32,782 bases of DNA from a virus (IMGVR_UViG_2671180643_000012); one strand, 5' to 3'; shown: positions 8,298-32,200, counted from the stretch's first letter. Program-made: numbers and translations. Notes: a model not told the origin generated them from the letters alone.

Positions 8298-8891
8298 CTA
8301 TTTGTCCCGGTTGGCTAAGGGATGACACAATTTATTCTTTGTCGCTGATGAGGGGAATTTTTTATAGAGCGTGGACAGACCAATATCAAAAATCAGCGCC
8401 ACACGTTGACGAGATTCCCCCGCAGCCAGCAACCGTCCGACCTGCTCCCACTCACCCGCAGTGAGTTTCGGTCGTCTGCCACCAATACGACCTTTGGCTC
8501 TGGCCGCTTCCAGTCCGGCGCGTGTCCGCTCGACAATGAGTTCTCGCTCCATTTCAGCCAGGGCACCCATCACATGAAAGAAAAAACGCCCCATCGGCGT
8601 GCTGGTATCAATAGCATCCGTCAGGCTGCGAAAATTAACGCCGCGTTCGCGCAGTTCCTCAACCAGAATGACCAGATGCCGCATACTACGCCCCAGCCTG
8701 TCCAGCTTCCAGACCACCAGAGTGTCACCTGCTGATAATGTTCTGAGCAGTTTTTTCAGTCCCGGCCTGTCGGACTTCGTGCCGCTGATTTTATCCTCAA
8801 AAATCAGCTCACATCCTGCACACTCCAGCGCGTTACGCTGCAATTCCGTGTTCTGGTCATTTGTTGACACGCGTACATAGCCAATAAGCAT
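8298..8891 (-). CDS. Serine recombinase, DNA invertase of the Gin/Hin/Pin/Cin family (tail-fibre invertase)
   Basis: 197 aa; N-terminal MLIGYVRVSTNDQ with the catalytic serine context, conserved resolvase/invertase motifs (LVVWKLDRLGRS) and a C-terminal helix-turn-helix region; sits directly beside the invertible tail-fibre segment. Confidence 0.85.
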   Translation of the reverse strand: MLIGYVRVSTNDQNTELQRNALECAGCELIFEDKISGTKSDRPGLKKLLRTLSAGDTLVVWKLDRLGRSMRHLVILVEELRERGVNFRSLTDAIDTSTPMGRFFFHVMGALAEMERELIVERTRAGLEAARAKGRIGGRRPKLTAGEWEQVGRLLAAGESRQRVALIFDIGLSTLYKKFPSSATKNKLCHPLANRDK

Positions 8892-8946
8892 GATTATCCC
8901 CCTGAATAAAAACCGGGGATGATGCCAGTTAGCTGTTACCTCTGCA

Positions 8947-8972
8947 TTTTCTTAAACGTTGGTTTGGGAGAA
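8947..8972. repeat. gix/hix-like inversion crossover site (left)
   Basis: ttttcttaaacg-tt-ggtttgggagaa: a 26-bp site with imperfect dyad symmetry, similar to the Mu gix site as I recall it. A 13-bp core ttggtttgggaga (8959-8971) recurs in inverted orientation at 10791-10803. Confidence 0.65.
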
Positions 8973-9419
8973 GGTTCTGCATTACCTGTTGGGGTGCCTG
9001 TTCCGTGGCCTTCAGCCACTCCGCCAACAGGCTGGCTGAAATGCAACGGTGCGCCTTTTTCTGCCGAAGAGTATCCGGAACTGGCAAAAGTTTACCCGAC
9101 AAATAAATTGCCTGATTTACGCGGTGAGTTTATTCGTGGCTGGGATGACGGAAGAGGAATAGATACTAGCCGTAGCTTGCTTTCATCACAGGGCGATGCC
9201 ATTCGAAATATAATTGGTGCATTAGTGGATGTCAGGTTTAATACCTATCCTTCTGATTCTGGCGCTTTTACAACCAGCGTCATCGGAGCTGCTTCATCTG
9301 ATTCAATTAACGGTGGTTATGCAAAGCGAGTAACATTCGATGCTTCCAGAGTTGTTCCAACTGCAAACGAAAACCGACCTCGTAACATTGCCTTTAATTA
9401 TATCGTGAGGGCTGCCTGA
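8961..9419 (+). CDS. Alternative tail-fibre C-terminal cassette (Sv'-like), silent in this orientation
   Basis: Open frame through the left crossover site encoding ...GLGE/GSALPVGVPVPW...; it would be fused in frame to the constant part of H after inversion. The ATG at 8919 in the track ORF lies outside the segment and is probably incidental. Stop overlaps the start of the next gene (ATGA at 9416-9421). Confidence 0.6.
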   Translation, partial: GLGEGSALPVGVPVPWPSATPPTGWLKCNGAPFSAEEYPELAKVYPTNKLPDLRGEFIRGWDDGRGIDTSRSLLSSQGDAIRNIIGALVDVRFNTYPSDSGAFTTSVIGAASSDSINGGYAKRVTFDASRVVPTANENRPRNIAFNYIVRAA

Positions 9420-10021
9420 TGAATAAAGCCGTATTAAATAACGAACTCATTGCCATAAAAGCGGGAGACATAACCGTTTATAATTATGATGGTGAAACGC
9501 GGGAATATATTTCCACATCAACTGAATATCTTGCGGTTGGCGTCGGTATCCCGGCATGTTCTTGTTTAGATGCACCAGTTACACATAAAGCTGGTTATGC
9601 AATCTGCCGTTCTGCAGATTTTAACTCATGGGAATATGTGCCAGACCATCGCGGTGAAATCATCTATAGCACCGAAACAGGAGAATCGAAAGAAATCACA
9701 GCTCCGGGTGATTACCCTGAAAATACAACCACTATCGCCCCGTTAACGCCATATGATAAATGGGATGGTGAGAAATGGGTGACGGATACTGAGGCACAGC
9801 ATAGTGCCGCAGTAGACGCGGCAGAAGCACAGCGCCAGTCACTGATTGATGCAGCAATGGCTTCCATTAGTCTGATTCAGCTGAAATTACAGGCCGGACG
9901 GAAGTTGACGCTGGCAGAAACAACCCGACTTAACGCCGTGCTGGATTACATTGACGCGGTGGTGGCAACAGATACCAGCACCGCGCCGGATGTCATCTGG
10001 CCTGAACTACCGGAGGCGTAG
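9419..10021 (+). CDS. Alternative tail-fibre assembly protein (U'-like), partner of the silent cassette
   Basis: 200 aa, translationally coupled to the preceding cassette; C-terminal region has the conserved tail-fibre-assembly ending (DYIDAV...APDVIWPELPEA), mirroring the expressed copy (APDIEWPTPP). Confidence 0.7.
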   Translation: MNKAVLNNELIAIKAGDITVYNYDGETREYISTSTEYLAVGVGIPACSCLDAPVTHKAGYAICRSADFNSWEYVPDHRGEIIYSTETGESKEITAPGDYPENTTTIAPLTPYDKWDGEKWVTDTEAQHSAAVDAAEAQRQSLIDAAMASISLIQLKLQAGRKLTLAETTRLNAVLDYIDAVVATDTSTAPDVIWPELPEA

Positions 10022-10432: not shown

Positions 10433-11629
10433 TTAACACCCTATTGAATACACCATTACTTCCAGTTGGCTGGATGTATATGTACTGGTTGCAAGAAATG
10501 AAGAAAGATTGTTATTAGATGCACTGACAAACGGACTCGCCGCCACGTTAATGGTGCGGCTTTCAACGTTGGCCCATGACCCAATAACCGTTAATGTGAA
10601 CGGGATTAAATAGTTTGCTGATACTGTAGCCCCTTTAGTACCAGATGCTGCAGGAATAGAGACTTTCTTCCATTGCAGCATCCATTTCTGAGGAAACCGT
10701 ACATATCCTTCATTCAGTTCATTCCTGAATTCAAAACTACCCATATCCGGGATCTGATTCCCCCCTGTGCCCACATCCCGTTTTGCCGCCTCTCCCAAAC
10801 CAAGGTATGCGAGAAGACCAGCTACATCCTTTCCACTCAAATGAGTCAGCGTCTCATCCAGTGGCTGCTTACCTGACAGCGCATTGTTAATGGTGGTACT
10901 GAATTTCGGGTCATTGTTAATGGCTGCGGCAATTTCTTTCAGTGTATCCAGCGTGGCAGGCGCACCGTTAATCAGAGCGGTAATAGCCGCCTGAACAAAC
11001 GCAGTGGTCGCAATCCGCGTGGTGTTATTTCCTGTGGCAGGCGTCGGCGCTTTTGGTTCTCCGGTAAATGTCGGATTATGTTTCTGTGCATACTGGGTAT
11101 GAGGGTCCTGTGCGGCAATGTGTTTTCTCATCTGGTCATCCACATACAGCCTTAATTCCAGGACTTCATCATCCACGTATTTACGGGTCGCCAGTACCAC
11201 CGACGGGTCGATTTTCAGCGTAATAGCTTCGGTATTCGTGACAACCAGAATCATGCGGATAGTCTGGGTACGACCACTTCCTTCCTGCAACTGCGGTTTG
11301 TACGTTTCCGGGCAGTTCGCCACCGCAATGAGTACGCCTTCATCATCATAAAGCCCAATCTCACGGATCCAGAATCCGCCCTCGTTCTCAGGGATGATTT
11401 GCTCCGCAATAATCTGGCTCTGGTTGTTCGGGTCAACACTCAGAAGATTCAGCGGTGCAATGCGTTTCTGATTAATCAGTTTTGTCTGTGCCGGGTCTGG
11501 TGTCGGCAAGACACCATTCGCATCACCAACGGCCATTTGCGTCAGATTCAGCTTACTGCCGAGCATCGTCGCGTTAGCCAGCCGTGCTGCGCCCTGATTA
11601 GTCAGAATGGCGTAGTATTTCACTGTCAT
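10433..11629 (-). CDS. H: Tail fibre protein H (P2-like N-terminal domain; C-terminal about 122 aa encoded inside the invertible segment)
   Basis: 398 aa; N-terminus has P2 gpH-like motifs (GGFWIREIGLYDDEGVLIAVAN, YKPQLQEGSGRTQTIRM); the right crossover site at 10790-10815 lies inside the gene at codons LGLGE. Confidence 0.85.
   Translation of the reverse strand: MTVKYYAILTNQGAARLANATMLGSKLNLTQMAVGDANGVLPTPDPAQTKLINQKRIAPLNLLSVDPNNQSQIIAEQIIPENEGGFWIREIGLYDDEGVLIAVANCPETYKPQLQEGSGRTQTIRMILVVTNTEAITLKIDPSVVLATRKYVDDEVLELRLYVDDQMRKHIAAQDPHTQYAQKHNPTFTGEPKAPTPATGNNTTRIATTAFVQAAITALINGAPATLDTLKEIAAAINNDPKFSTTINNALSGKQPLDETLTHLSGKDVAGLLAYLGLGEAAKRDVGTGGNQIPDMGSFEFRNELNEGYVRFPQKWMLQWKKVSIPAASGTKGATVSANYLIPFTLTVIGSWANVESRTINVAASPFVSASNNNLSSFLATSTYTSSQLEVMVYSIGC
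10790..10815. repeat. gix/hix-like inversion crossover site (right), inside gene H
   Basis: The reverse complement reads ttctcgcatacc-tt-ggtttgggagag, matching the left site at the core and right half. Confidence 0.65.
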
Positions 11630-20389: not shown

Positions 20390-20562
20390 TGTCAGGAGTC
20401 CTGAATAGTGATTAGAGGAGTCACATGTCGGCATCAGTTTCCCGACGATGCGCATCCTCCGCCATCAGTCCCGGATGGCTTATCACTGACACAACAGCAC
20501 CTTAGCGAATCGCGGGGCGCGACTCAGTAGCCTTGCCGTGTATTCATCACGGCGAGGTATTC
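20390..20562. promoter_or_regulatory. Divergent late-promoter region between O and P (expected Ogr-dependent promoters)
   Basis: Intergenic region between divergent late operons, as in P2; contains a partial dyad resembling the TGT-N12-ACA activator site (gtgattagaggagtcaca). Exact promoter elements not resolved. Confidence 0.4.
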
Positions 20563-22335
20563 ATGACCATCACCACAGACACCACTCTTTTACACGACCC
20601 GCGTCGTCAGGCGGCGCTGCTGTACTGGCAGGGGTTTTCCGTGCCGCAGATTGCCGCCATGTTGCAGATGAAACGCCCGACGGTGCAGAGCTGGAAACAG
20701 CGCGACGGCTGGGACAGCGTTGCCCCCATCAGCCGTGTCGAAATGAGTCTGGAAGCGCGGCTGACCCAGCTCATCATCAAACCGCAGAAAACCGGCGGTG
20801 ACTTCAAGGAAATTGACCTGCTCGGACGCCAGATTGAACGACTGGCACGGGTCAACCGCTACAGCCAGACCGGCAACGAAGCAGACCTTAATCCGAACGT
20901 CGCTAACCGCAACAAAGGCGGGCGTCGCAAACCGAAAAAGAATTTTTTCAGTGACGAGGCCATCGAAAAGCTGGAGCAGATTTTCTTTGAGCAGTCTTTC
21001 GACTATCAGTTGCACTGGTATCGCGCCGGGCTTGAGCACCGCATCCGCGATATCCTGAAATCCCGCCAGATTGGCGCGACGTTTTATTTTTCCCGCGAGG
21101 CGCTGCTGCGCGCCCTGAAAACCGGCCATAACCAGATTTTTCTGTCGGCCAGTAAAACGCAGGCGTATGTGTTCCGCGAATACATCATTGCCTTTGCCCG
21201 GCTGGTTGACGTTGACCTGACCGGTGACCCGATTGTCCTGGGCAATAACAGCGCAAAACTGATTTTTCTCGGCACCAACTCCAACACCGCACAGAGCCAT
21301 AACGGCGACCTGTACGTCGATGAGATTTTCTGGATCCCGAATTTTCAGGTACTGCGTAAGGTGGCATCAGGTATGGCCTCACAGAGTCACCTGCGCTCGA
21401 CCTATTTCTCCACCCCGTCCACGCTGGCGCACGACGCCTACCCGTTCTGGTCGGGTGAACTGTTCAACCGGGGACGCGCCAGCGCCGCCGAACGCGTGGA
21501 AATCGACATCAGTCATAACGCCCTTGCCGGAGGTCTTCTCTGTGCGGACGGCCAGTGGCGGCAGATTGTCACCATTGAGGACGCCCTGAAAGGTGGCTGC
21601 ACGCTGTTCGACATTGAGCAGCTCAAACGTGAAAACAGCGCCGACGATTTTAAAAACCTGTTCATGTGTGAATTTGTTGACGACAAGGCGTCGGTGTTCC
21701 CGTTCGAGGAGCTGCAACGCTGCATGGTCGACACGCTGGAAGAATGGGAAGACTATGCGCCGTTTGCCGCCAATCCGTTCGGCTCCCGCCCGGTATGGAT
21801 TGGTTACGACCCGTCACACCGTGGCGACAGCGCCGGATGCGTGGTGCTGGCACCGCCGGTGGTGGCCGGTGGCAAATTCAGAATACTTGAGCGTCACCAG
21901 TGGAAAGGCATGGACTTTGCCACCCAGGCTGAATCCATCCGCAAACTCACCGAAAAATACAACGTCGAATACATCGGTATTGATGCCACCGGCCTCGGTG
22001 TCGGCGTGTTCCAGCTCGTGCGCTCGTTCTATCCCGCCGCGCGCGACATCCGCTACACGCCGGAAATGAAAACCGCAATGGTGCTCAAGGCAAAAGACGT
22101 TATCCGCCGTGGCTGTCTGGAATATGACGTCAGCGCCACCGACATCACCAGCTCGTTTATGGCTATCCGCAAGACCATGACCAGCAGCGGACGCAGCGCC
22201 ACCTATGAGGCCAGCCGCAGCGAGGAAGCCAGCCACGCCGACCTCGCCTGGGCGACCATGCACGCTCTGTTAAATGAGCCACTCACCGCCGGTATCAGCA
22301 CCCCGCTGACATCCACCATTCTGGAGTTTTACTGA
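20563..22335 (+). CDS. P: Terminase large (ATPase) subunit P
   Basis: 590-aa product starting MTITTDTTLLHDPRRQAALLYWQGFSVPQIAAML..., P2 gpP length; track ORF trimmed by 10 codons. Confidence 0.9.
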   Translation: MTITTDTTLLHDPRRQAALLYWQGFSVPQIAAMLQMKRPTVQSWKQRDGWDSVAPISRVEMSLEARLTQLIIKPQKTGGDFKEIDLLGRQIERLARVNRYSQTGNEADLNPNVANRNKGGRRKPKKNFFSDEAIEKLEQIFFEQSFDYQLHWYRAGLEHRIRDILKSRQIGATFYFSREALLRALKTGHNQIFLSASKTQAYVFREYIIAFARLVDVDLTGDPIVLGNNSAKLIFLGTNSNTAQSHNGDLYVDEIFWIPNFQVLRKVASGMASQSHLRSTYFSTPSTLAHDAYPFWSGELFNRGRASAAERVEIDISHNALAGGLLCADGQWRQIVTIEDALKGGCTLFDIEQLKRENSADDFKNLFMCEFVDDKASVFPFEELQRCMVDTLEEWEDYAPFAANPFGSRPVWIGYDPSHRGDSAGCVVLAPPVVAGGKFRILERHQWKGMDFATQAESIRKLTEKYNVEYIGIDATGLGVGVFQLVRSFYPAARDIRYTPEMKTAMVLKAKDVIRRGCLEYDVSATDITSSFMAIRKTMTSSGRSATYEASRSEEASHADLAWATMHALLNEPLTAGISTPLTSTILEFY

Positions 22336-23369
22336 TGAGCAAGAAAAAAGGGAAAACACCGCAACCTGCGGCAAAAAAAATGACCGCCAGCGCCCCGAAA
22401 ATGGAGGCATTCACCTTTGGTGAGCCGGTGCCGGTACTCGACCGCCGTGACATTCTGGATTACGTCGAATGCATCAGTAACGGCAGATGGTATGAGCCAC
22501 CAATCAGCTTTACCGGTCTGGCAAAAAGCCTGCGTGCTGCCGTGCATCACAGCTCACCGATTTACGTTAAACGCAATATTCTGGCCTCGACATTTATCCC
22601 GCATCCGTGGCTTTCCCAGCAGGATTTCAGCCGCTTTGTGCTGGATTTTCTGGTGTTCGGTAATGCGTTTCTGGAAAAGCGCTACAGCACCACCGGTAAG
22701 GTCATCAGACTGGAAACCTCACCGGCAAAATATACCCGCCGTGGCGTGGAGGAGGATGTTTACTGGTGGGTGCCATCCTTCAACGAGCCGACACCTTTCG
22801 CGCCCGGCTCCGTGTTTCACCTGCTGGAGCCGGATATCAATCAGGAGCTGTACGGCCTGCCGGAATATCTCAGCGCCCTTAACTCTGCCTGGCTGAATGA
22901 GTCGGCCACGCTGTTCCGCCGCAAGTATTACGAAAACGGCGCACATGCCGGATACATCATGTACGTCACCGATGCCGTGCAGGATCGCAACGATATCGAA
23001 ATGCTTCGCGAAAACATGGTGAAGTCGAAAGGCCGCAACAACTTTAAAAACCTGTTTCTCTACGCCCCACAGGGAAAAGCCGACGGTATTAAAATTATCC
23101 CGCTCAGTGAAGTGGCAACGAAGGACGATTTTTTTAATATCAAAAAAGCCAGCGCCGCAGACCTGCTGGACGCGCACCGCATCCCTTTTCAGTTGATGGG
23201 CGGCAAGCCGGAGAACGTCGGGTCGCTGGGTGATATTGAGAAAGTGGCAAAGGTCTTTGTCCGCAATGAGCTTATCCCGTTACAGGACAGGATCCGCGAG
23301 ATAAACGGCTGGCTCGGTCAGGAGGTCATCCGCTTTAAAAACTACTCACTGGACACTGACAACGGCTGA
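22335..23369 (+). CDS. Q: Portal protein Q
   Basis: 344 aa, P2 gpQ length; start overlaps the P stop (ATGA). Confidence 0.9.
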   Translation: MSKKKGKTPQPAAKKMTASAPKMEAFTFGEPVPVLDRRDILDYVECISNGRWYEPPISFTGLAKSLRAAVHHSSPIYVKRNILASTFIPHPWLSQQDFSRFVLDFLVFGNAFLEKRYSTTGKVIRLETSPAKYTRRGVEEDVYWWVPSFNEPTPFAPGSVFHLLEPDINQELYGLPEYLSALNSAWLNESATLFRRKYYENGAHAGYIMYVTDAVQDRNDIEMLRENMVKSKGRNNFKNLFLYAPQGKADGIKIIPLSEVATKDDFFNIKKASAADLLDAHRIPFQLMGGKPENVGSLGDIEKVAKVFVRNELIPLQDRIREINGWLGQEVIRFKNYSLDTDNG

Positions 23370-23538: not shown

Positions 23539-23557
23539 GTGCTTTCCCCGCCTCGCC
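23539..23557. other. cos site (19-nt cohesive end), reverse complement of GGCGAGGCGGGGAAAGCAC
   Basis: Sequence gtgctttccccgcctcgcc matches the P2 19-nt cohesive end as I recall it; lies about 170 bp beyond Q, where cos sits in P2. Confidence 0.8.
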
Positions 23558-23639
23558 CGCCCGCTTCATGGGGCGGTTTTAATGCAGTTGCATGAGTACG
23601 TTGAATCCTCGCTAGCTGTGACGTAAAGCAATGAGGACG

Positions 23640-23886
23640 CATAACTTTGACACATGCAAAACCATGCACCTGATACATGCATAGTTATTACTTTGTAAAA
23701 ACATAAAAAAAGGAAATCCCATGAACAAAAATCAAACTATTAATAAAAATTTTTATATCTCTTAGAACAAAAGATTTTGCTTGAACAAAGTAAACTTCTG
23801 AGGTAGATCTTTATCGTTTAGCAAAATAATTCATGTTAAACAGCTTAAATATTTATACAATATCATTGGCAATGATGAGGTTTTAA
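23640..23886 (+). promoter_or_regulatory. AT-rich leader/promoter region of the cargo gene, containing three CATGCA repeats inside an ATAACT/AGTTAT inverted-repeat frame
   Basis: Composition becomes AT-rich near 23640; a perfect TTGACA at about 23647-23652; CATGCA at about 23653, 23663 and 23676; a possible -10 tacaat at about 23856-23861; GAGG Shine-Dalgarno 6 nt upstream of the ATG at 23887. Confidence 0.35.
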
Positions 23887-26106
23887 ATGGAACTTAAATT
23901 AAAGAATATAACCAGCTATAAGAAAGATAGCTTCACGACTCTTAATCTCTCAAAAAAAATTAATATACTTTATGGTCACAACGGTTGTGGAAAATCAACC
24001 ATATCTAATTATTTCTATAATCCAAATAACACGGACTACAAAGAATGTGAATGTCCTTTCATAGATACTTTTCGCCTATTGGTTTATAATACTAAGTTTG
24101 TTGAGGATAATTTTTATAATGCAAAAGAGCAAAAAGGAGTATTCACTTTAAGTAAGGAAAATGCTGACATTGAAAAAGAATTGTTGGAAAAAGAAGCTAT
24201 AAGACAAGACCTACTTACAAAATACAAAGATAAAAAAAACGTTATTGAGCGTTTAATTAAAGATAAAAACAATAAAGAAAATGAATATATTGATTTAATA
24301 TGGAATAAAGCAGAACCTTTTAGATCATCTGACTTAAAGAACTTGATGAAAGGTCAGTTAGGAAGCAAGAGATCATTTTATGAGCAAGTTAAAAAAGCCC
24401 CTCAAACCACTGACGTTAACATCGAGTCACTTGCTCAAGAATATAGTATTCTTTTAAAGAACAAAGATAAATTCACTGCATCAATTACACCTTTAGAAAA
24501 ATATATCATTTCAGAAAAAGATAAAGAATCTTTATCCACTCCGATTATAGACTCAAGTAATAGCTATTTGTCAGAAACAATTAAACAACTTCAAAACCTT
24601 GACTGGGTGAAAAAAGGGAAGGAATTATATTTAAATGGCACATGTTGCCCATTCTGCCAAGAAGACACTATTAAAGACAAATTTTTAGAAGCAATTGAAT
24701 CTATCTTTGATGATAGCTACTCCAAGAAAGTTGACCAAATACGCATTATCAGATCGTCTTATGAATCCGCTACCATAGATAATTTAAGAAAAATAAAACA
24801 AGAGATTTCATCTTGTGAATTAATCACCTCAAAAGAAAAAGATATAACATCATCTCATATAGCGTTATTAGAGGAAATAGCAAACAAAAACTTAAAATTG
24901 ATGTTAGATAAAATCAATAACCCATCTATATCTATTATTTTGGAATCCAATAGCGACCTTGAAGCAAAGGTAGTTGATAATATAGCAGAGTACAACAATA
25001 GAATTAAAGAAATAAATATTAAAGTCAAACAATTTAAGGATAGTGAAAAGTCTATACGTTACAAAATATGGGGAGCAATAAGAGAATTATGCAACGCTGA
25101 GTTTGAAGCTTTCTCAAAATATGAGAATGACTATAAAATCATTTATGAACAATATCAACTTGAATTAAATACCATAAAAGAACAAGGAGATAACAATAGC
25201 AAAAAGATCAAAGAGCTACGCGATCAAATATCTAACATTGATGCAACCATAGATTCTATAAATCAACGTCTAAAATTATTAGGAATTTATGGTTTTAGCA
25301 TAAAAAAACACACTGAGAGCAATGATAAATATATTATATCACGTTCTGAAAACACAACAGATAAAGATGTATACAGATCTCTTAGCGAGGGTGAAAAAAC
25401 TTTAATTACCTTTCTCTACTTTCTGGAATGCTGTAAAGGTAAGACAGATAAGAATGATACGGATATGCGAGATGTATTTATCGTTATTGATGATCCAATA
25501 TCCAGCCTCTCTCAAAATTATGTGTACGATATTGCTTCAATAATTCACCATGAAATAATCAACAATAACAAAGCAGTAAAGAAAACATTAATACTCACAC
25601 ATAACCTTTATTTCTTTCATGAACTTATCAAATTAGCTCCTAGAAGCAAAGAAGATAGAACATTCAAGCGTGATTATTATCTTGGACGAGTAACAAAAAA
25701 TGAATATAGCATAATTACAGAAATAGAGAAAAAGAGCATTCAGAATGAATACCAGTCCCTATGGCAAGTATTAAAAGATGCGAAGGATGGAAGGGTAAAT
25801 AAAGTTATAATACCTAACATCATGAGAAATATACTGGAATACTACTTCGCATTTGTTCATAGAACGGATGCATTACAGACAGAGTTAAATAAACTTGCTA
25901 GCGATGATAAGAATAATGATTTTAGAGCATTTTATAGATACATTAATAGAGGTTCCCATTCAGATGCAGTTAATATCACAGACATGGGAGATATATCTCC
26001 AGAGAAATATATGGAGCAACTAAAAACCATTTTTCGTATGACTGGTGATGAAAAACATTATTTGAAAATGATGGACGAAGAGGAAGAGGAAACCGTTACC
26101 GCTTAG
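23887..26106 (+). CDS. Candidate anti-phage defence protein: ABC/SMC-type ATPase with CxxC coiled-coil insert and C-terminal putative nuclease region (PrrC/RloC-like architecture)
   Basis: 739 aa. Walker A GHNGCGKST near the N-terminus, then VFTLSKEN; K/E-rich coiled coil with central CCPFCQ; ABC-signature-like LSEGEK; Walker B VFIVIDDPISSLS; LILTHN; C-terminal about 190 aa with R-x3-E (MRNILEYY) and a His about 40 residues later (NRGSHSD). Strongly AT-rich with many ATA/AAA/AAT codons, unlike the flanking phage genes; occupies the P2 tin/old cargo position. Confidence 0.6.
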   Translation: MELKLKNITSYKKDSFTTLNLSKKINILYGHNGCGKSTISNYFYNPNNTDYKECECPFIDTFRLLVYNTKFVEDNFYNAKEQKGVFTLSKENADIEKELLEKEAIRQDLLTKYKDKKNVIERLIKDKNNKENEYIDLIWNKAEPFRSSDLKNLMKGQLGSKRSFYEQVKKAPQTTDVNIESLAQEYSILLKNKDKFTASITPLEKYIISEKDKESLSTPIIDSSNSYLSETIKQLQNLDWVKKGKELYLNGTCCPFCQEDTIKDKFLEAIESIFDDSYSKKVDQIRIIRSSYESATIDNLRKIKQEISSCELITSKEKDITSSHIALLEEIANKNLKLMLDKINNPSISIILESNSDLEAKVVDNIAEYNNRIKEINIKVKQFKDSEKSIRYKIWGAIRELCNAEFEAFSKYENDYKIIYEQYQLELNTIKEQGDNNSKKIKELRDQISNIDATIDSINQRLKLLGIYGFSIKKHTESNDKYIISRSENTTDKDVYRSLSEGEKTLITFLYFLECCKGKTDKNDTDMRDVFIVIDDPISSLSQNYVYDIASIIHHEIINNNKAVKKTLILTHNLYFFHELIKLAPRSKEDRTFKRDYYLGRVTKNEYSIITEIEKKSIQNEYQSLWQVLKDAKDGRVNKVIIPNIMRNILEYYFAFVHRTDALQTELNKLASDDKNNDFRAFYRYINRGSHSDAVNITDMGDISPEKYMEQLKTIFRMTGDEKHYLKMMDEEEEETVTA

Positions 26107-26353
26107 GCCGCATATCATCGGGTTGGGTAAGAACGACGGTGTTCACACACCGTCTCCCACTTACCGAAACGATAGCGATTGTACTGACGTACTTTCACTA
26201 ACTTTAACATGAGATTATCTCCATGCCAGCACTATTGTTGCCAATAGCAGCCTTTACACCCTTTGTATAAAGCTAATACCAAGAGCAATGCAAGGATACC
26301 CCAAGCGGTAACTGGCGTGGATTCTAGAGCAGCCTAACTAAAAAATCAAAGCA

Positions 26354-28621
26354 TTAATTAAATCCCGGCCACTCATCATTTACCGGATACCTGAAGTTTA
26401 CCCCCTCATAATTTACGGTTGCCCCACGCGCCAGCGCCTCAAGCTCCCATCGCTGAGGCCTGATACCGTTCTGACCAAGGTCAACGCGGATACGGGGGAT
26501 TTGCATTCGTTCCGACCGGGTCAGTCTGGCCGAAGGCGCAATTTCATGCGGTTTTAACGGGCTTCCGTTTCTTTGCTGACGATTTGGTGTTCTCAGTTCG
26601 TGTTTTAATGCCCCCCTGAGCGCCCTCACGACATCCGGGTCATTCCATTCGATAACACCGTCATCGACCAGATTAAGCACGGCTGCGGCATGTTCAGAAG
26701 GTGTGGGAGCCGTTAACGAAGTATCACTGCCGGTGAACTTTCCACAGTTATTGACAGGACTCCGAGGCGCGGCGATGCCGCTTTTTAAAGTCAAAGGCTC
26801 AACGACCGGAACTTTCGGCACAATGCGCCAGTCCGTCGTTCTGGTGATATGAATATGACGCGCGCCGAGATGCGGCGCGTAAATGCCGACCACTCTCTCG
26901 ACTTCTTCCTCGTACTCGTTAACGTCATCCGACGGGCTACGGGCAACCCTGACAGTCTGACAATCGCGCGGGACATTTGCCCCACCCTGCGCGCTGATAT
27001 ACAACGCAAAATCACCACTGTCTGCGGCAGCGCGAGCAGCCTCGACGCGTTCGTCAAACTCATCAGCAATACTGACGCCGCGAGGCAATTTGCGTAGTTC
27101 ACGGTAAGCCCCCATTGTCGGCAGTCCAACCGTTTTAAATTGCGGGATGCGCCACGTTGACGCCCATGCGGTAACAGCCGCGGCAGTATCTTTAAGCGGC
27201 TTACCGGTATCGTTATCGAGCTGACCATCCAGTGCATAGCCGTCGATGTTTTTTGAAATGTATTTCGCGATATATCCCGCAGCACCGCCCCGGTTAAGGT
27301 GCTTTGCCTGAAAACGGTTTCGCGCTGCTCCTCTTTCGTCGCCATCCTCTTTGAGCGCATAGCGACGCATGATTTCGATAATCTGGTTACGCTGGCGCGA
27401 ATTACAAAAAAGCATCATATGCCAGTGCGGCGTTCCGTCGTGGTGTGGCTCGACGACACGCAAACCGTAGACCTGTAAATCATTATCCTTGAATGCCGTG
27501 CGCATCAGGCTCCAGATGCGGCAGAGATAACGCTGCGCATCCTTTGGATTAAATGCCTCATCGTTCCAGCCGTGATTAAGCTGAACGGTTTTACTTTCGC
27601 CTTTTCTGACCTGACGAGTCGGGTGATACTTTGACGGCGCAGTCAGCGTGATAAACATCCCCACATCACCCTCTGCGGCGGCGTAACGCTCAATACCGGC
27701 AATGGTGTTCATCAGCTCCATCCGGCGAATTTCAGGATTAGAAATACTGCCCATCACCTTACTGATAAGGTCGATGCGCTCGCCGGTTTCCCTGTTTTCA
27801 AGGTCACACGATTTAAGAAATTCCAGATTTGCCTGGCGGCGCGCACGCACATCACGAATGGCGTGTTTACTGGCATAAGGAGAACGGTCTTTATTGACCT
27901 CCCCGACAGCTATCAGTAACGCTTCATGCCAGCGCATACGCTGGCCTTTAAGCTGATGAGTCCACCACTCATCGTTAAACAGACGGGCAATGGCAGAATA
28001 TGCCTGCCTCGTGGTCATCTGCCCTTTACGGTATTTTTTCCAGTAGAGAGGGGAAATATTGAAAGCACGTGCAGCGCCAGCAACATGACCATAGAGGTGA
28101 GCCTGCGCCTCATCCGTAAACAGCGATTCTTTTTCGCCATGCGCATCCACCCAGGCATCACTGAGTTCCTCATACATCATGAAAAGCTGCGATGAGATAC
28201 GGGCAGCAAACTTTTTCAGCTCCTTGTCATTCATTCCCGGCAGGCGCGCATAGTGGTCACGCTCTGCCAGAAACAGCAACGACGCGTCGGTGTTCATTTC
28301 ATGGCGCTGATTCACACGCTCAATGCGCGGCCATAAACGACGCTGAAAAGTGGATGTGAGGAAATAAAACCCGTGTACCGGGCTTTTATTGCGCCGGATG
28401 TAGTCATAGCGTGAAGTAAACAGCGAGCGCAAAAAGTAAGGCAGGCGGTTAATCGTGGATAAAACACCTTGCACCTGACGCATCTCGTCACGTGTAAGGG
28501 GTCTTTCGCGCCCGACGGCCTCGCGTGGCGCGTTCCATGCATAAGCACCGGTAAACGCCTTACCGGTGCCTGCAGCAAATGCTGAAGGAGGGACAAAACG
28601 CCCGGAGGCTTTAACGGCCAT
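26354..28621 (-). CDS. A: Replication initiation protein A (rolling-circle nickase)
   Basis: Long ORF with the tyrosine active-site region (GYIAKYISKNIDGYAL) and a P2 gpA-like N-terminus MAVKASGRFVPPSAF; I chose the ATG at 28621. The track ORF starts 14 codons upstream at a TTG (28663). Confidence 0.85.
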   Translation of the reverse strand: MAVKASGRFVPPSAFAAGTGKAFTGAYAWNAPREAVGRERPLTRDEMRQVQGVLSTINRLPYFLRSLFTSRYDYIRRNKSPVHGFYFLTSTFQRRLWPRIERVNQRHEMNTDASLLFLAERDHYARLPGMNDKELKKFAARISSQLFMMYEELSDAWVDAHGEKESLFTDEAQAHLYGHVAGAARAFNISPLYWKKYRKGQMTTRQAYSAIARLFNDEWWTHQLKGQRMRWHEALLIAVGEVNKDRSPYASKHAIRDVRARRQANLEFLKSCDLENRETGERIDLISKVMGSISNPEIRRMELMNTIAGIERYAAAEGDVGMFITLTAPSKYHPTRQVRKGESKTVQLNHGWNDEAFNPKDAQRYLCRIWSLMRTAFKDNDLQVYGLRVVEPHHDGTPHWHMMLFCNSRQRNQIIEIMRRYALKEDGDERGAARNRFQAKHLNRGGAAGYIAKYISKNIDGYALDGQLDNDTGKPLKDTAAAVTAWASTWRIPQFKTVGLPTMGAYRELRKLPRGVSIADEFDERVEAARAAADSGDFALYISAQGGANVPRDCQTVRVARSPSDDVNEYEEEVERVVGIYAPHLGARHIHITRTTDWRIVPKVPVVEPLTLKSGIAAPRSPVNNCGKFTGSDTSLTAPTPSEHAAAVLNLVDDGVIEWNDPDVVRALRGALKHELRTPNRQQRNGSPLKPHEIAPSARLTRSERMQIPRIRVDLGQNGIRPQRWELEALARGATVNYEGVNFRYPVNDEWPGFN

Positions 28622-28886
28622 ATGAGCCAAAAGCCTCTGAACAACGCCTGCTGAGTTGCTCAACCTGCGCGTTTAAATCAGCAAAAGACGTTGCGCTTCC
28701 GGTCAGAATATCGTGATGCATCAGGCCGGAAACGAGCTGGCTTAATTTCGGATAATAACCAACCACCGCCAGCCATTCCTGACCGGCGTTTTTACCGCTT
28801 TCCGCTCTCTTTTTCTCGTGGAGAATAAACTGAAAGCTGTCACTGGTAACGACATAACGTTCGCCAATTTCAATACGAATACTCAT
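28611..28886 (-). CDS. Small early-operon protein (P2 orf83-like), function unknown
   Basis: 91-aa ORF just upstream of A, overlapping its start. Confidence 0.6.
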   Translation of the reverse strand: MSIRIEIGERYVVTSDSFQFILHEKKRAESGKNAGQEWLAVVGYYPKLSQLVSGLMHHDILTGSATSFADLNAQVEQLSRRCSEAFGSYGR

Positions 28887-31186: not shown

Positions 31187-32200
31187 ATGGCAATCAAAAA
31201 ACTCGATGATGGTCGATATGAAGTGGACATCCGCCCTACTGGACGTAACGGAAAACGCATCCGTAGGAAGTTTGATAAGAAAAGCGAAGCTGTCGCTTTC
31301 GAAAAATACACGTTGTACAACCACCACAATAAAGAATGGCTATCAAAACCAACAGACAAACGACGTCTGTCGGAACTGACACAGATCTGGTGGGATTTAA
31401 AGGGTAAACACGAAGAGCATGGGAAATCTAATCTTGGAAAAATTGAAATCTTCACAAAAATAACGAATGACCCATGCGCATTTCAAATCACGAAATCCCT
31501 TATCAGCCAGTACTGCGCCACCCGAAGAAGTCAGGGTATTAAACCTTCGAGTATCAATCGTGATTTAACATGTATTAGCGGCATGTTTACAGCCCTGATT
31601 GAAGCGGAGTTATTCTTTGGTGAGCACCCTATCAGAGGGACAAAGAGGCTTAAGGAGGAAAAACCAGAAACAGGCTATCTCACACAGGAAGAAATTGCCT
31701 TACTGCTTGCAGCACTTGACGGCGACAATAAAAAGATTGCGATTCTTTGCCTGAGTACAGGAGCACGTTGGGGAGAAGCAGCTCGTTTGAAAGCAGAAAA
31801 TATCATCCATAACCGCGTCACGTTTGTTAAAACGAAAACAAACAAACCACGCACCGTCCCGATCTCAGAGGCTGTTGCCAAAATGATCGCGGATAACAAA
31901 CGAGGTTTTTTATTCCCTGATGCTGATTACCCTCGCTTCAGACGAACAATGAAAGCAATAAAACCGGATTTGCCAACGGGGCAAGCCACACATGCACTAA
32001 GGCACAGCTTTGCCACTCATTTCATGATTAATGGAGGAAGTATTATCACACTACAACGGATACTAGGTCACACGCGGATTGAGCAAACTATGGTTTACGC
32101 TCATTTTGCGCCAGAGTACCTTCAGGACGCCATTTCTCTTAATCCGCTAAGAGGTGGTACTGAAGCCGAGAGTGTCCACACAGTGTCCACAGTAGAGTAA
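31187..32200 (+). CDS. int: Tyrosine integrase
   Basis: 337 aa, P2 Int length; C-terminal catalytic motifs (HALRHSFATH ... LGHTRIEQTMVYAHF) with the tyrosine nucleophile; next to the att core. Confidence 0.9.
   Translation: MAIKKLDDGRYEVDIRPTGRNGKRIRRKFDKKSEAVAFEKYTLYNHHNKEWLSKPTDKRRLSELTQIWWDLKGKHEEHGKSNLGKIEIFTKITNDPCAFQITKSLISQYCATRRSQGIKPSSINRDLTCISGMFTALIEAELFFGEHPIRGTKRLKEEKPETGYLTQEEIALLLAALDGDNKKIAILCLSTGARWGEAARLKAENIIHNRVTFVKTKTNKPRTVPISEAVAKMIADNKRGFLFPDADYPRFRRTMKAIKPDLPTGQATHALRHSFATHFMINGGSIITLQRILGHTRIEQTMVYAHFAPEYLQDAISLNPLRGGTEAESVHTVSTVE

Follow-up and report, generated by a model that had tools for sequence, protein, structure and literature searches.

A conserved small gene within a structured RNA accompanies a predicted RloC-like anticodon-nuclease gene in the defence hotspot of a P2-like prophage

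The viral DNA stretch IMGVR_UViG_2671180643_000012 (32,782 nucleotides; hereafter the window, with positions counted from its first letter) is a complete P2-like prophage, with its map reversed relative to that of standard P2. Between its cos site and the stop codon of gpA lies a sharply bounded, AT-rich island (23587-26353), consisting in order of an AT-rich leader, a gene encoding a 739-aa protein and a 247-bp spacer (26107-26353). The large gene is, judged from its domains and motifs, RloC-like, encoding a Rad50-like ABC ATPase with a hook and a PrrC/RloC-type RNase domain. The spacer was found to hold a second gene, a conserved open reading frame (ORF) of only 31 codons that is embedded in a conserved RNA structure and is tightly linked to the clade of RloC-like genes to which the large gene belongs. 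We moderately favor the view that the cassette is a two-gene RloC-type abortive-infection module in which the small peptide and its RNA control the anticodon nuclease. The island and the large gene have already been catalogued, and what appears to be new here is the conserved small gene together with the structured RNA; no description of a partner gene of RloC or of the PADLOC system PDC-S06 was found in the literature, which was incompletely covered, recent RloC papers included.

The spacer contains a conserved small gene

The first-pass annotation of the window had treated the cassette as a single gene, noting that the spacer lacks any ORF of 60 aa or more. The region 26107-26353 indeed holds none of that length, but a 31-aa ORF is present, and the single-gene description was not supported by comparison with related loci: the DNA of the spacer is 82–89% identical between loci whose large proteins share only 46–70% identity, and part of it is still recognizable in Vibrio. 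The features of the small gene are the following.

26115-26210, minus strand: small ORF, 31 aa, MLKLVKVRQYNRYRFGKWETVCEHRRSYPTR, isoelectric point (pI) 10.6, identified by orthologue alignment, coding signature and a PHROG match
26219-26222, minus strand: Shine-Dalgarno sequence GGAG of the small ORF, 8 nt upstream of the ATG
26321-26349, minus strand: promoter-like site TTGATT-17-TAGAAT for the small gene, predicted from its match to the consensus

The small ORF is convergent with the large gene, their stop codons being 8 nt apart, and its start context, GGAGAT-N6-ATG, is invariant. The promoter-like site starts immediately beyond the gpA stop codon and is separated by ~7 nt from the 5' arm of the outer helix described below; its −35 (TTGAyy) and −10 (TAnAnT) elements are kept in three related loci (L005, L008 and L009), with variable sequence in between. 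The ORF was found in 79 of 222 loci, yielding 37 distinct peptides of 31–34 aa, all of which begin at ATG and nearly all of which are preceded by a GGAG-type Shine-Dalgarno sequence. Their common core is V-R-Q-Y-x-R-[FY]-R-[FL]-G-x-W-E-x-V-x-x-H-x-R-S-[LY]-P. Of the substitutions, 59% are at third codon positions, and the synonymous fraction of codon differences is 0.59 in the frame of the ORF, compared to 0.11 and 0.04 in the other frames. By this pattern of substitution the spacer ORF is shown to be a real gene under coding constraint, although it is not annotated in RefSeq.

The peptide is strongly basic (pI 10.6, net charge +6.6) and has no hydrophobic helix. It was predicted by AlphaFold2 (AF2) to form a four-strand β-meander (predicted local distance difference test score, pLDDT, 87.6), for which no meaningful fold match was obtained in the PDB (best E 4.8). 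No match was found in Pfam or NCBIfam, and the only family match was to PHROG phrog_21154 (4e-9), to which no function is assigned in that database. A resemblance of the peptide to T4 Stp was considered and is too weak to be claimed.

The small gene is embedded in a conserved RNA structure

When folded as RNA, the strand encoding the small ORF forms a compact structure closed by an outer helix, here termed P1, with two hairpins in the leader (P2 and P3) and one within the coding sequence.

26095-26312, minus strand: predicted structured transcript of ~218 nt containing the small gene, based on folding energy and conserved architecture
26300-26312, minus strand: 5' arm of P1, GUUACCGCUUGGG, pairing with 26107-26095
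26095-26107, minus strand: 3' arm of P1, CCUAAGCGGUAAC, antiparallel to the last codons of the large gene (V-T-A-stop)
26250-26273, minus strand: leader hairpin P2, GCUUUAUAC-AAAGG-GUGUAAAGGC, recovered by RNAalifold, with two-sided changes at 7 of 9 pairs
26232-26247, minus strand: leader hairpin P3, CUAUUG-GCAA-CAAUAG with a GNRA loop, seen in leaders folded singly
26135-26154, minus strand: hairpin within the small ORF, GACGGUGU-GUGA-ACACCGUC, with 89–97% of alignment cells paired

The segment 26094-26314 of the minus strand (221 nt) has a predicted folding energy of −86.6 kcal/mol (z = −5.6), and none of 200 shuffled sequences was as stable. P1 is present as a contiguous helix of 8–16 bp in all 42 non-redundant modules, its 5' arm lying ~95–118 nt upstream of the ATG and its 3' arm 7–17 nt past the stop codon. 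The arms themselves are unrelated between groups, with at least seven different sequences (e.g. GUUACCGCUUGGG, GCAGCUACCACC, UACCACUGAGGCACU, GCAGCUCCCCCC, CCCCGGGAU and UGUCGUCACCU), and two-sided changes were seen at 9 of the 13 pairs of the helix. In 35 of the 42 modules, the length of P1 was reached by at most 2 of 200 shuffles. P3 was scored sequence by sequence, as gaps in the MAFFT alignment put it out of register, and was found in every module folded singly, with varied stems such as CCAUUG/CAAUGG, CCUGUG/CACAGG and UCAGCG/CGCUGA. The pairs of the hairpin within the ORF are mostly invariant or show one-sided changes, and thus constitute weaker evidence.

In the structure-blind MAFFT alignment, 91.4% of cells at the proposed pairs were able to pair, compared to 35–48% in slid controls. 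Two-sided changes occurred at 17 pairs, and none of 500 shuffles matched the observed values. RNAalifold independently recovered P1, P2 and the hairpin within the ORF. As G-U pairs are far more frequent than C-A mismatches, the RNA lies on the strand of the small ORF. Taken together, the covariation and the codon statistics show a small gene under both coding and RNA-structure constraint.

Searches of Rfam with E values up to 10 gave only sub-threshold noise for the spacer; a match of the leader hairpins (26241-26274, minus strand) to RT-6 reached 19 bits against a gathering threshold of 46.7 (E = 0.68) and is probably due to chance. The flanking inverted repeats had suggested a retron-like non-coding RNA, but no reverse transcriptase is encoded in the cassette. 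A DNA element with terminal inverted repeats, such as a miniature inverted-repeat transposable element (MITE), was rejected in view of the coding signature and the excess of G-U over C-A.

The large gene encodes an RloC-like protein

The large gene was assigned from several independent lines of comparison.

23887-26106, plus strand: RloC-like anticodon-nuclease gene, 739 aa, assigned by AAA_13, PDC-S06 and PrrC models, motifs, AF2 model and fold matches

The protein matches Pfam AAA_13 over its full length (2e-102) and the PADLOC model PDC-S06 (PDLC04886) over residues 2–732 (E = 4.4e-253), while the PADLOC model for PrrC covers residues 456–734 only (2.5e-14). Over 32 homologues of 25–70% identity, the ATPase motifs were found to be invariant (Walker A G30-x-N-G-x-G-K-x-T38, LSEGE 499–503, DDP 535–537 and H572), as were a CPFC hook (C254-P-F-C257) and the set R647-x3-E651-x39-S690-H691. 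The catalytic signature published for the anticodon-nuclease domain of RloC is Arg-X3-Glu-X36-52-His, often with Ser before the His (PMC2610378); the X39 spacing found here fits this signature, and S690 directly precedes H691.

In the AF2 model (pLDDT 82.8), long helices interrupt the ABC head, and the C-terminal domain is likewise helical; the long helices formed by residues 90–141 and 276–446 flank the CPFC motif, which sits at the turn. The closest folds in the PDB were the heads of Rad50 and SMC proteins with their coiled coils, followed by the defence ATPases PtuA and LmuB. No sequence relative of the large protein was found in the PDB, RloC and PrrC included. One distant homologue (n = 1) carries the source name 'wobble nucleotide-excising tRNase'.

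In some loci the large gene is interrupted by insertion sequences, namely by the IS21-family element ISEc12 in the E. coli type strain ATCC 11775 (L096, NZ_CP033092.2, 1-4011) and by IS5 in another hit (H125, NZ_CP146687.1), and the small ORF is intact beside both. Truncated fragments of the large protein make up very large clusters, one of which (P0046) has 1,244 members, suggesting that a costly gene has been inactivated repeatedly. Split large genes beside an intact small gene fit a large protein that is the costly, toxic partner.

The C-terminus of the large protein is acidic (DEEEEETVTA, 26068-26106), and its last codons are the complement of the 3' arm of the small RNA. Homologues outside the enterobacterial group stop short of the acidic-tail element. 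That this tail and the basic peptide carry opposite charges is suggestive.

The small gene is linked to one clade of RloC-like genes

The small gene was present in all 47 evaluable loci with a large protein of at least 39% identity to that of the window, and in about half of those at 31–37%. In a neighbor-joining tree the two-gene partnership marks one major clade. Within the subclade of the window, the small gene is convergent with the large gene and no locus was scored as lacking it, whereas in a Pseudomonas-type subclade it is co-directional. No divergent small ORF was found by an iterated hidden Markov model (HMM) of the peptide or by nhmmer at DNA level in the loci scored as lacking it. 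Among 5,426 complete E. coli genomes, the element occurs in 94, each with a single copy; in all 40 of the E. coli matches listed it lies beside an AAA ATPase in a P2-like prophage, and no copy away from the ATPase was seen among these. A gene-level search was consistent with a near one-to-one relation of the two genes. The pairing is found in P2 prophages, non-P2 chromosomal islets, Vibrio and Pseudomonas islands and IncF plasmids; on the latter, in Klebsiella and Enterobacter, the small ORF is convergent with full-length AAA_13 genes of 30–31% identity that keep all RloC motifs. Divergence is far lower in the peptide core (26%) than in the large protein (61%). The small gene is thus tightly linked to this RloC-like clade, in either orientation.

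A gene for a DUF4145-domain protein adjoins the pair in Vibrio (L012 8735-9289) and on an Enterobacter IncF plasmid (L230 2866-3498), and in some lineages may act as a third, or accessory, component.

More distant relatives of the peptide were found at four other loci (L227 2956-3090, L222 5001-5135, L225 4001-4090 and L228 3249-3329). The first of these lies between cI and N of the Shiga toxin phage SH2026 (Stx1), presumably, by comparison with lambda, at the position of rexAB. Other relatives lie between the endolysin and integrase genes of a prophage, convergent with a DUF3800 gene beside a Ser/Thr kinase gene and VapBC on Acinetobacter plasmids, and divergent from an AAA_21 ATPase gene on a 4.4-kb ColE1-type plasmid. 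This distribution suggests that the peptide is a portable module of accessory loci on mobile elements; that stand-alone copies in phages act as counter-defence mimics is speculative.

The cassette occupies a known hotspot and has long been AT-rich

The first-pass annotation had described the region between cos and A as an AT-rich island with sharp edges and foreign codon usage, devoid of orf91, tin and old homologues and carried as a cargo cassette in their place. These points were borne out by a sliding GC and codon analysis, in which the island differed clearly from the rest of the prophage, and by alignment with six other P2-like phages and prophages, in which the content of the slot varied.

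22335-23369, plus strand: gpQ portal gene, backbone flank (Pfam Phage_portal)
23539-23557: cos, 19-nt cohesive-end sequence at which the Q side of the backbone ends, from the match to P2 and its annotated cosR
23587-23616: left breakpoint zone of the cassette, where homology to P2 and five other P2-like elements ends
23617-23886, plus strand: AT-rich leader of the large gene (GC 0.22–0.27)
26354-28663, minus strand: gpA replication endonuclease gene, backbone flank (Pfam Phage_GPA 7e-122; 96.6% identical to P2 A)

Positions 23539-23586 are 97.9% identical to the right end of P2 (33593-33546), whose record places cosR at 33575-33593, corresponding to 23539-23557 of the window. Homology ends on the left at 23586 relative to P2, at 23593-23615 for most comparators and at 23683 for STYP1, and restarts at 26340-26369, i.e. 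at the gpA stop codon (26354). GC content falls from 0.53–0.62 to 0.22–0.35 at ~23600-26100 and has recovered by 26400. The 739-aa ORF has a GC content of 0.30 (flanks about 0.53) and a third-position GC content (GC3) of 0.27, using ATA for 45% of Ile, AGA and AGG for 59% of Arg and TTA for 44% of Leu; the neighboring phage genes and the host Peptidase_U32 gene have GC3 values of 0.54–0.74, with ATA fractions of at most 0.11 and TTA fractions of at most 0.14. Homologues of P2 Old, Tin and Orf91 were not found in the window by tblastn (best E = 0.11); this best match, a candidate orf91 remnant in the spacer, is on the opposite strand and was attributed to chance. No hsd genes were found in the cassette, the content between cos and gpA being the large and the small gene.

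In other P2-like phages the slot is occupied by Fic/VbhT, DUF4238, retron Ec48, DUF4209 or exoribonuclease genes. The island lies between gpQ/cos and gpA, with content that varies among otherwise collinear genomes, and is thus cargo of the cos-proximal gpA–gpQ defence hotspot of P2-like phages defined by Rousset et al. 2022 (PMC9122126). Table S5B of that study lists AAA_13 "RloC-like" as a single gene and as the fifth commonest arrangement (420 loci), and includes the proteins of two loci examined here (L094 and L095; WP_000423599 and WP_000423309).

The first-pass annotation had further read the composition as a sign of recent horizontal acquisition, which was not upheld. Alleles in the same slot share 64–66% protein identity with the window's in E. 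coli, 58% in Yersinia ruckeri, 51–52% in the E. coli O157 type and 46% in Serratia fonticola, and all have GC contents of 0.30–0.33 between flanks of 0.49–0.58. A copy of 70% identity was found in a non-P2 chromosomal islet of Serratia marcescens, and the Pseudomonas-type subclade has GC contents of 0.45–0.55, matching its hosts. Since low GC has been kept over a long divergence of alleles, the date of insertion cannot be read from it; the AT-richness is a maintained property of the lineage and no sign of recent arrival. Xenogeneic silencing or frequent exchange between hotspots are possible causes. That one foreign gene was recently taken up from a donor of low GC is accordingly most improbable: the sharp edges and the contrast in GC would suit it, as would the occurrence of related genes in low-GC contigs (flank GC 0.36–0.40), but the divergent same-slot alleles of 46–66% identity are all equally AT-rich (~0.30–0.33), at least 94 E. 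coli genomes share the cassette, of which several allelic forms exist, and the spacer carries a second gene.

Possible function and alternative explanations

In the mechanism that we favor, the ATPase region of the large protein would, by analogy with RloC of Geobacillus and Acinetobacter, sense a phage-associated DNA signal and free the nuclease, which would then cut tRNA anticodon loops and thereby halt translation and phage growth. The small gene would serve in the control of the nuclease, for its latency or its coupling to the trigger, and the stability of the peptide, or its translation, may depend on the folded mRNA. Expressed RloC is toxic and limits itself (PMC2610378), and therefore needs restraint; this, the tight linkage irrespective of orientation and the intact small genes beside insertion-split large genes favor the small gene as the controller of the nuclease.

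Several observations weigh against this interpretation. No small gene was found in any locus of the genome sample with a large protein below about 30% identity, and several nested RloC-like subclades lack the whole element, so that the nuclease can exist alone. Conversely, the four distant peptide relatives (L227, L222, L225 and L228) are found alone or next to other genes, with no RloC-like gene, and the peptide is therefore not exclusive to such genes. The co-divergence of the two genes is weak but significant (Spearman 0.18, reached by 3 of 2000 permutations). A type II antitoxin would not typically be a strongly basic peptide from a convergent gene that has its own promoter-like site, and the promoter-like sites are consensus matches only.

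Part of this evidence could be taken to mean that the large gene forms a single-gene RloC-like cassette, and that the small gene is an independent hitch-hiker near defence genes, either an addiction or type I-like element or an unrelated moron. The existence of peptide relatives with no RloC-like neighbor, of RloC-like subclades with no small gene, and of a promoter-like site belonging to the small gene itself would agree with this, as would its occurrence in either orientation and the fold-back of the RNA between its 5' and 3' ends, which resembles that of hok-type toxin mRNAs. We nevertheless find it unlikely, given the presence of the small gene in all 47 close relatives, its single copy per genome, its position abutting the ATPase gene in 40 of 40 E. 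coli matches listed, with no element away from the ATPase among them, and the retention of the pairing across prophages, islets, islands and plasmids; the peptide is also basic and soluble-looking rather than a hydrophobic membrane toxin. It is somewhat easier to envisage, while still rather improbable, that two genes act together with the peptide or RNA serving as trigger sensor, activator, pseudo-substrate or tRNA-like decoy instead of as inhibitor. A basic β-sheet peptide suits nucleic-acid binding more than the masking of an RNase, the RNA structure is constrained beyond that of an ordinary mRNA, and the RloC-like genes that lack the peptide indicate that it is no obligatory antidote. On the other hand, no hairpin has a tRNA-like 7-nt anticodon loop, Rfam revealed no tRNA-like or other known RNA family, and the insertion-split large genes beside intact small genes fit an inhibitor equally well.

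That the spacer acts only as RNA or DNA, e.g. as a bidirectional terminator, a 3'-untranslated-region or antisense regulator, or MITE-like repeats, with the ORF being incidental, is very hard to reconcile with the data. The 13-bp inverted repeats at either end, the overlap of the 3' arm with the final codons of the large gene and the high predicted stability of the fold would suit it. However, the coding signature (59% third-position changes; synonymous fraction 0.59 as opposed to 0.04–0.11) and the conserved ATG and Shine-Dalgarno sequence speak for translation, and the peptide is conserved in Vibrio and Pseudomonas where the DNA has diverged. The excess of G-U over C-A indicates a strand-specific RNA and not DNA repeats. 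Overlap with the mRNA of the large gene is limited to the 3' arm when the genes are convergent and is absent when they are co-directional, and the co-directional arrangement of the Pseudomonas-type subclade, which leaves no antisense overlap, weakens the idea of antisense regulation through convergent 3' ends.

Returning to the two-gene module, a broader form of the proposal is that the peptide and its end-paired mRNA constitute a hitherto unrecognized regulatory part of RloC-type nucleases, as latency factor or trigger switch, and more generally a portable module that mobile elements attach to varied ABC-ATPase defence effectors (AAA_13, AAA_21 and possibly the DUF3800/kinase loci); this we put forward tentatively, as a possibility that may well prove wrong.

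Comparison with known systems

The large protein was compared to RloC, an anticodon nuclease that excises the wobble nucleotide, as described by Davidov & Kaufmann 2008 (PMC2610378) and Klaiman et al. 2012 (PMC3458546) and 2014 (PMC3874168). It shares with RloC the ABC ATPase head split by a helical, Rad50-like insert with an invariant CxxC (CPFC here) as putative zinc hook, the C-terminal R-x3-E-x39-(S)H triad, and a stand-alone setting that lacks a linked restriction-modification locus. Its sequence is only distantly related to those of the characterized enzymes, its nuclease activity is a prediction, and its clade differs in having the small gene and structured RNA, which are absent from the descriptions in the RloC papers, and in its carriage in a prophage hotspot. 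PrrC, the E. coli anticodon nuclease of the prr locus, has the same kind of anticodon-nuclease domain (residues 456–734 of the large protein) and ABC ATPase motifs, but is compact (~400 aa) with no coiled-coil or hook insert, whereas the large protein has 739 aa with an insert of ~350 aa. Furthermore, PrrC is always embedded in a type Ic restriction-modification locus, which silences it (PMC2610378), and the cassette has no type Ic prr/hsd locus.

The AAA_13 'RloC-like' system of the P2 hotspot and PDC-S06 of PADLOC represent the same gene family, the former in the same slot, but both Rousset et al. and the PADLOC entries record a single gene and mention neither small ORF nor RNA. No test of phage resistance by this AAA_13/PDC-S06 system was found in the literature. 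Transcription of old-tin in P2 begins ~170 nt from cos and proceeds toward A, and the large gene matches it both in position and in its direction away from cos. Like Old, its product is an ABC-type ATPase fused to a nuclease, and by analogy with old and tin it is predicted to provide a prophage-borne exclusion function. The nuclease parts differ, as Old has a Toprim DNase domain and the large protein an RNase domain; blastp against Old gave a best E of 1.1, confined to the P-loop region, and no Toprim match was found in Pfam.

The mRNA of hok is compact and highly folded, with its 5' end paired to its 3' end. The small gene resembles such hok/sok type I mRNAs in having a small ORF in a folded, end-paired mRNA with the Shine-Dalgarno sequence and AUG in a local hairpin, but encodes a basic peptide of predicted β-sheet structure in place of a hydrophobic membrane toxin; no gene for an antisense RNA was identified, and linkage to a large nuclease gene is no feature of type I systems. 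With type II toxin-antitoxin systems it shares adjacent genes that consistently co-occur (47 of 47 loci; 94 E. coli genomes), but the genes are convergent, each with a promoter-like site, and do not form a bicistronic operon.

Few genes occupy the P2 hotspot more often than those of the RloC-like AAA_13 type, which defence-finding tools score as single-gene systems. To our knowledge, RloC has no equivalent of the restriction-modification partner of PrrC. How a stand-alone RloC is silenced and triggered has been a question since 2008, for which the small gene and its RNA offer an easily mutated candidate; if our proposal is true, a small-protein/RNA module answers how such an enzyme is silenced and switched on. 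Constructs cloned as a "single gene" may then miss a functional part. The small gene is also an example of a real gene missed by standard annotation, in a region that readers would dismiss as spacer.

Other features of the cassette and prophage

Three CATGCA motifs (23652-23682) lie in the leader, which also has a GAGG Shine-Dalgarno sequence (23877-23880). A promoter scan gave a weak σ70-like site at 23837-23866, with 9 of 12 matches, which is at chance level. The ~30-nt stretch with the CATGCA motifs is the sole part of the leader common to other loci, namely STYP1 (with Fic as cargo), the Y. ruckeri prophage (L009) and the non-P2 S. marcescens locus (L008), and may be an operator or promoter element that moves with different cargos. 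In the same P2 slot, an HNH endonuclease gene lies upstream of the RloC-like gene in Serratia fonticola (L011 4641-5357), and three small ORFs (45, 64 and 145 aa) in Yersinia ruckeri (L009 5029-5947).

The remaining landmarks of the window are as follows.

1-1362: host Peptidase_U32 gene
20533-22335: terminase gene P, preceded by the tail genes
31187-32200: integrase gene

Among the tail genes, a gene for a Hin/Gin-type serine recombinase (8298-8891, minus strand) adjoins an ORF with a tail-collar domain (8919-9419), followed by a tail-fibre assembly gene (9419-10021); the latter two are on the opposite strand to the gene for the tail-fibre N-terminus (10433-11629). The region 8298-10021 has the appearance of an invertible tail-fibre (host-range) segment, and a second low-GC patch (0.45–0.49) of the prophage falls at the same place.

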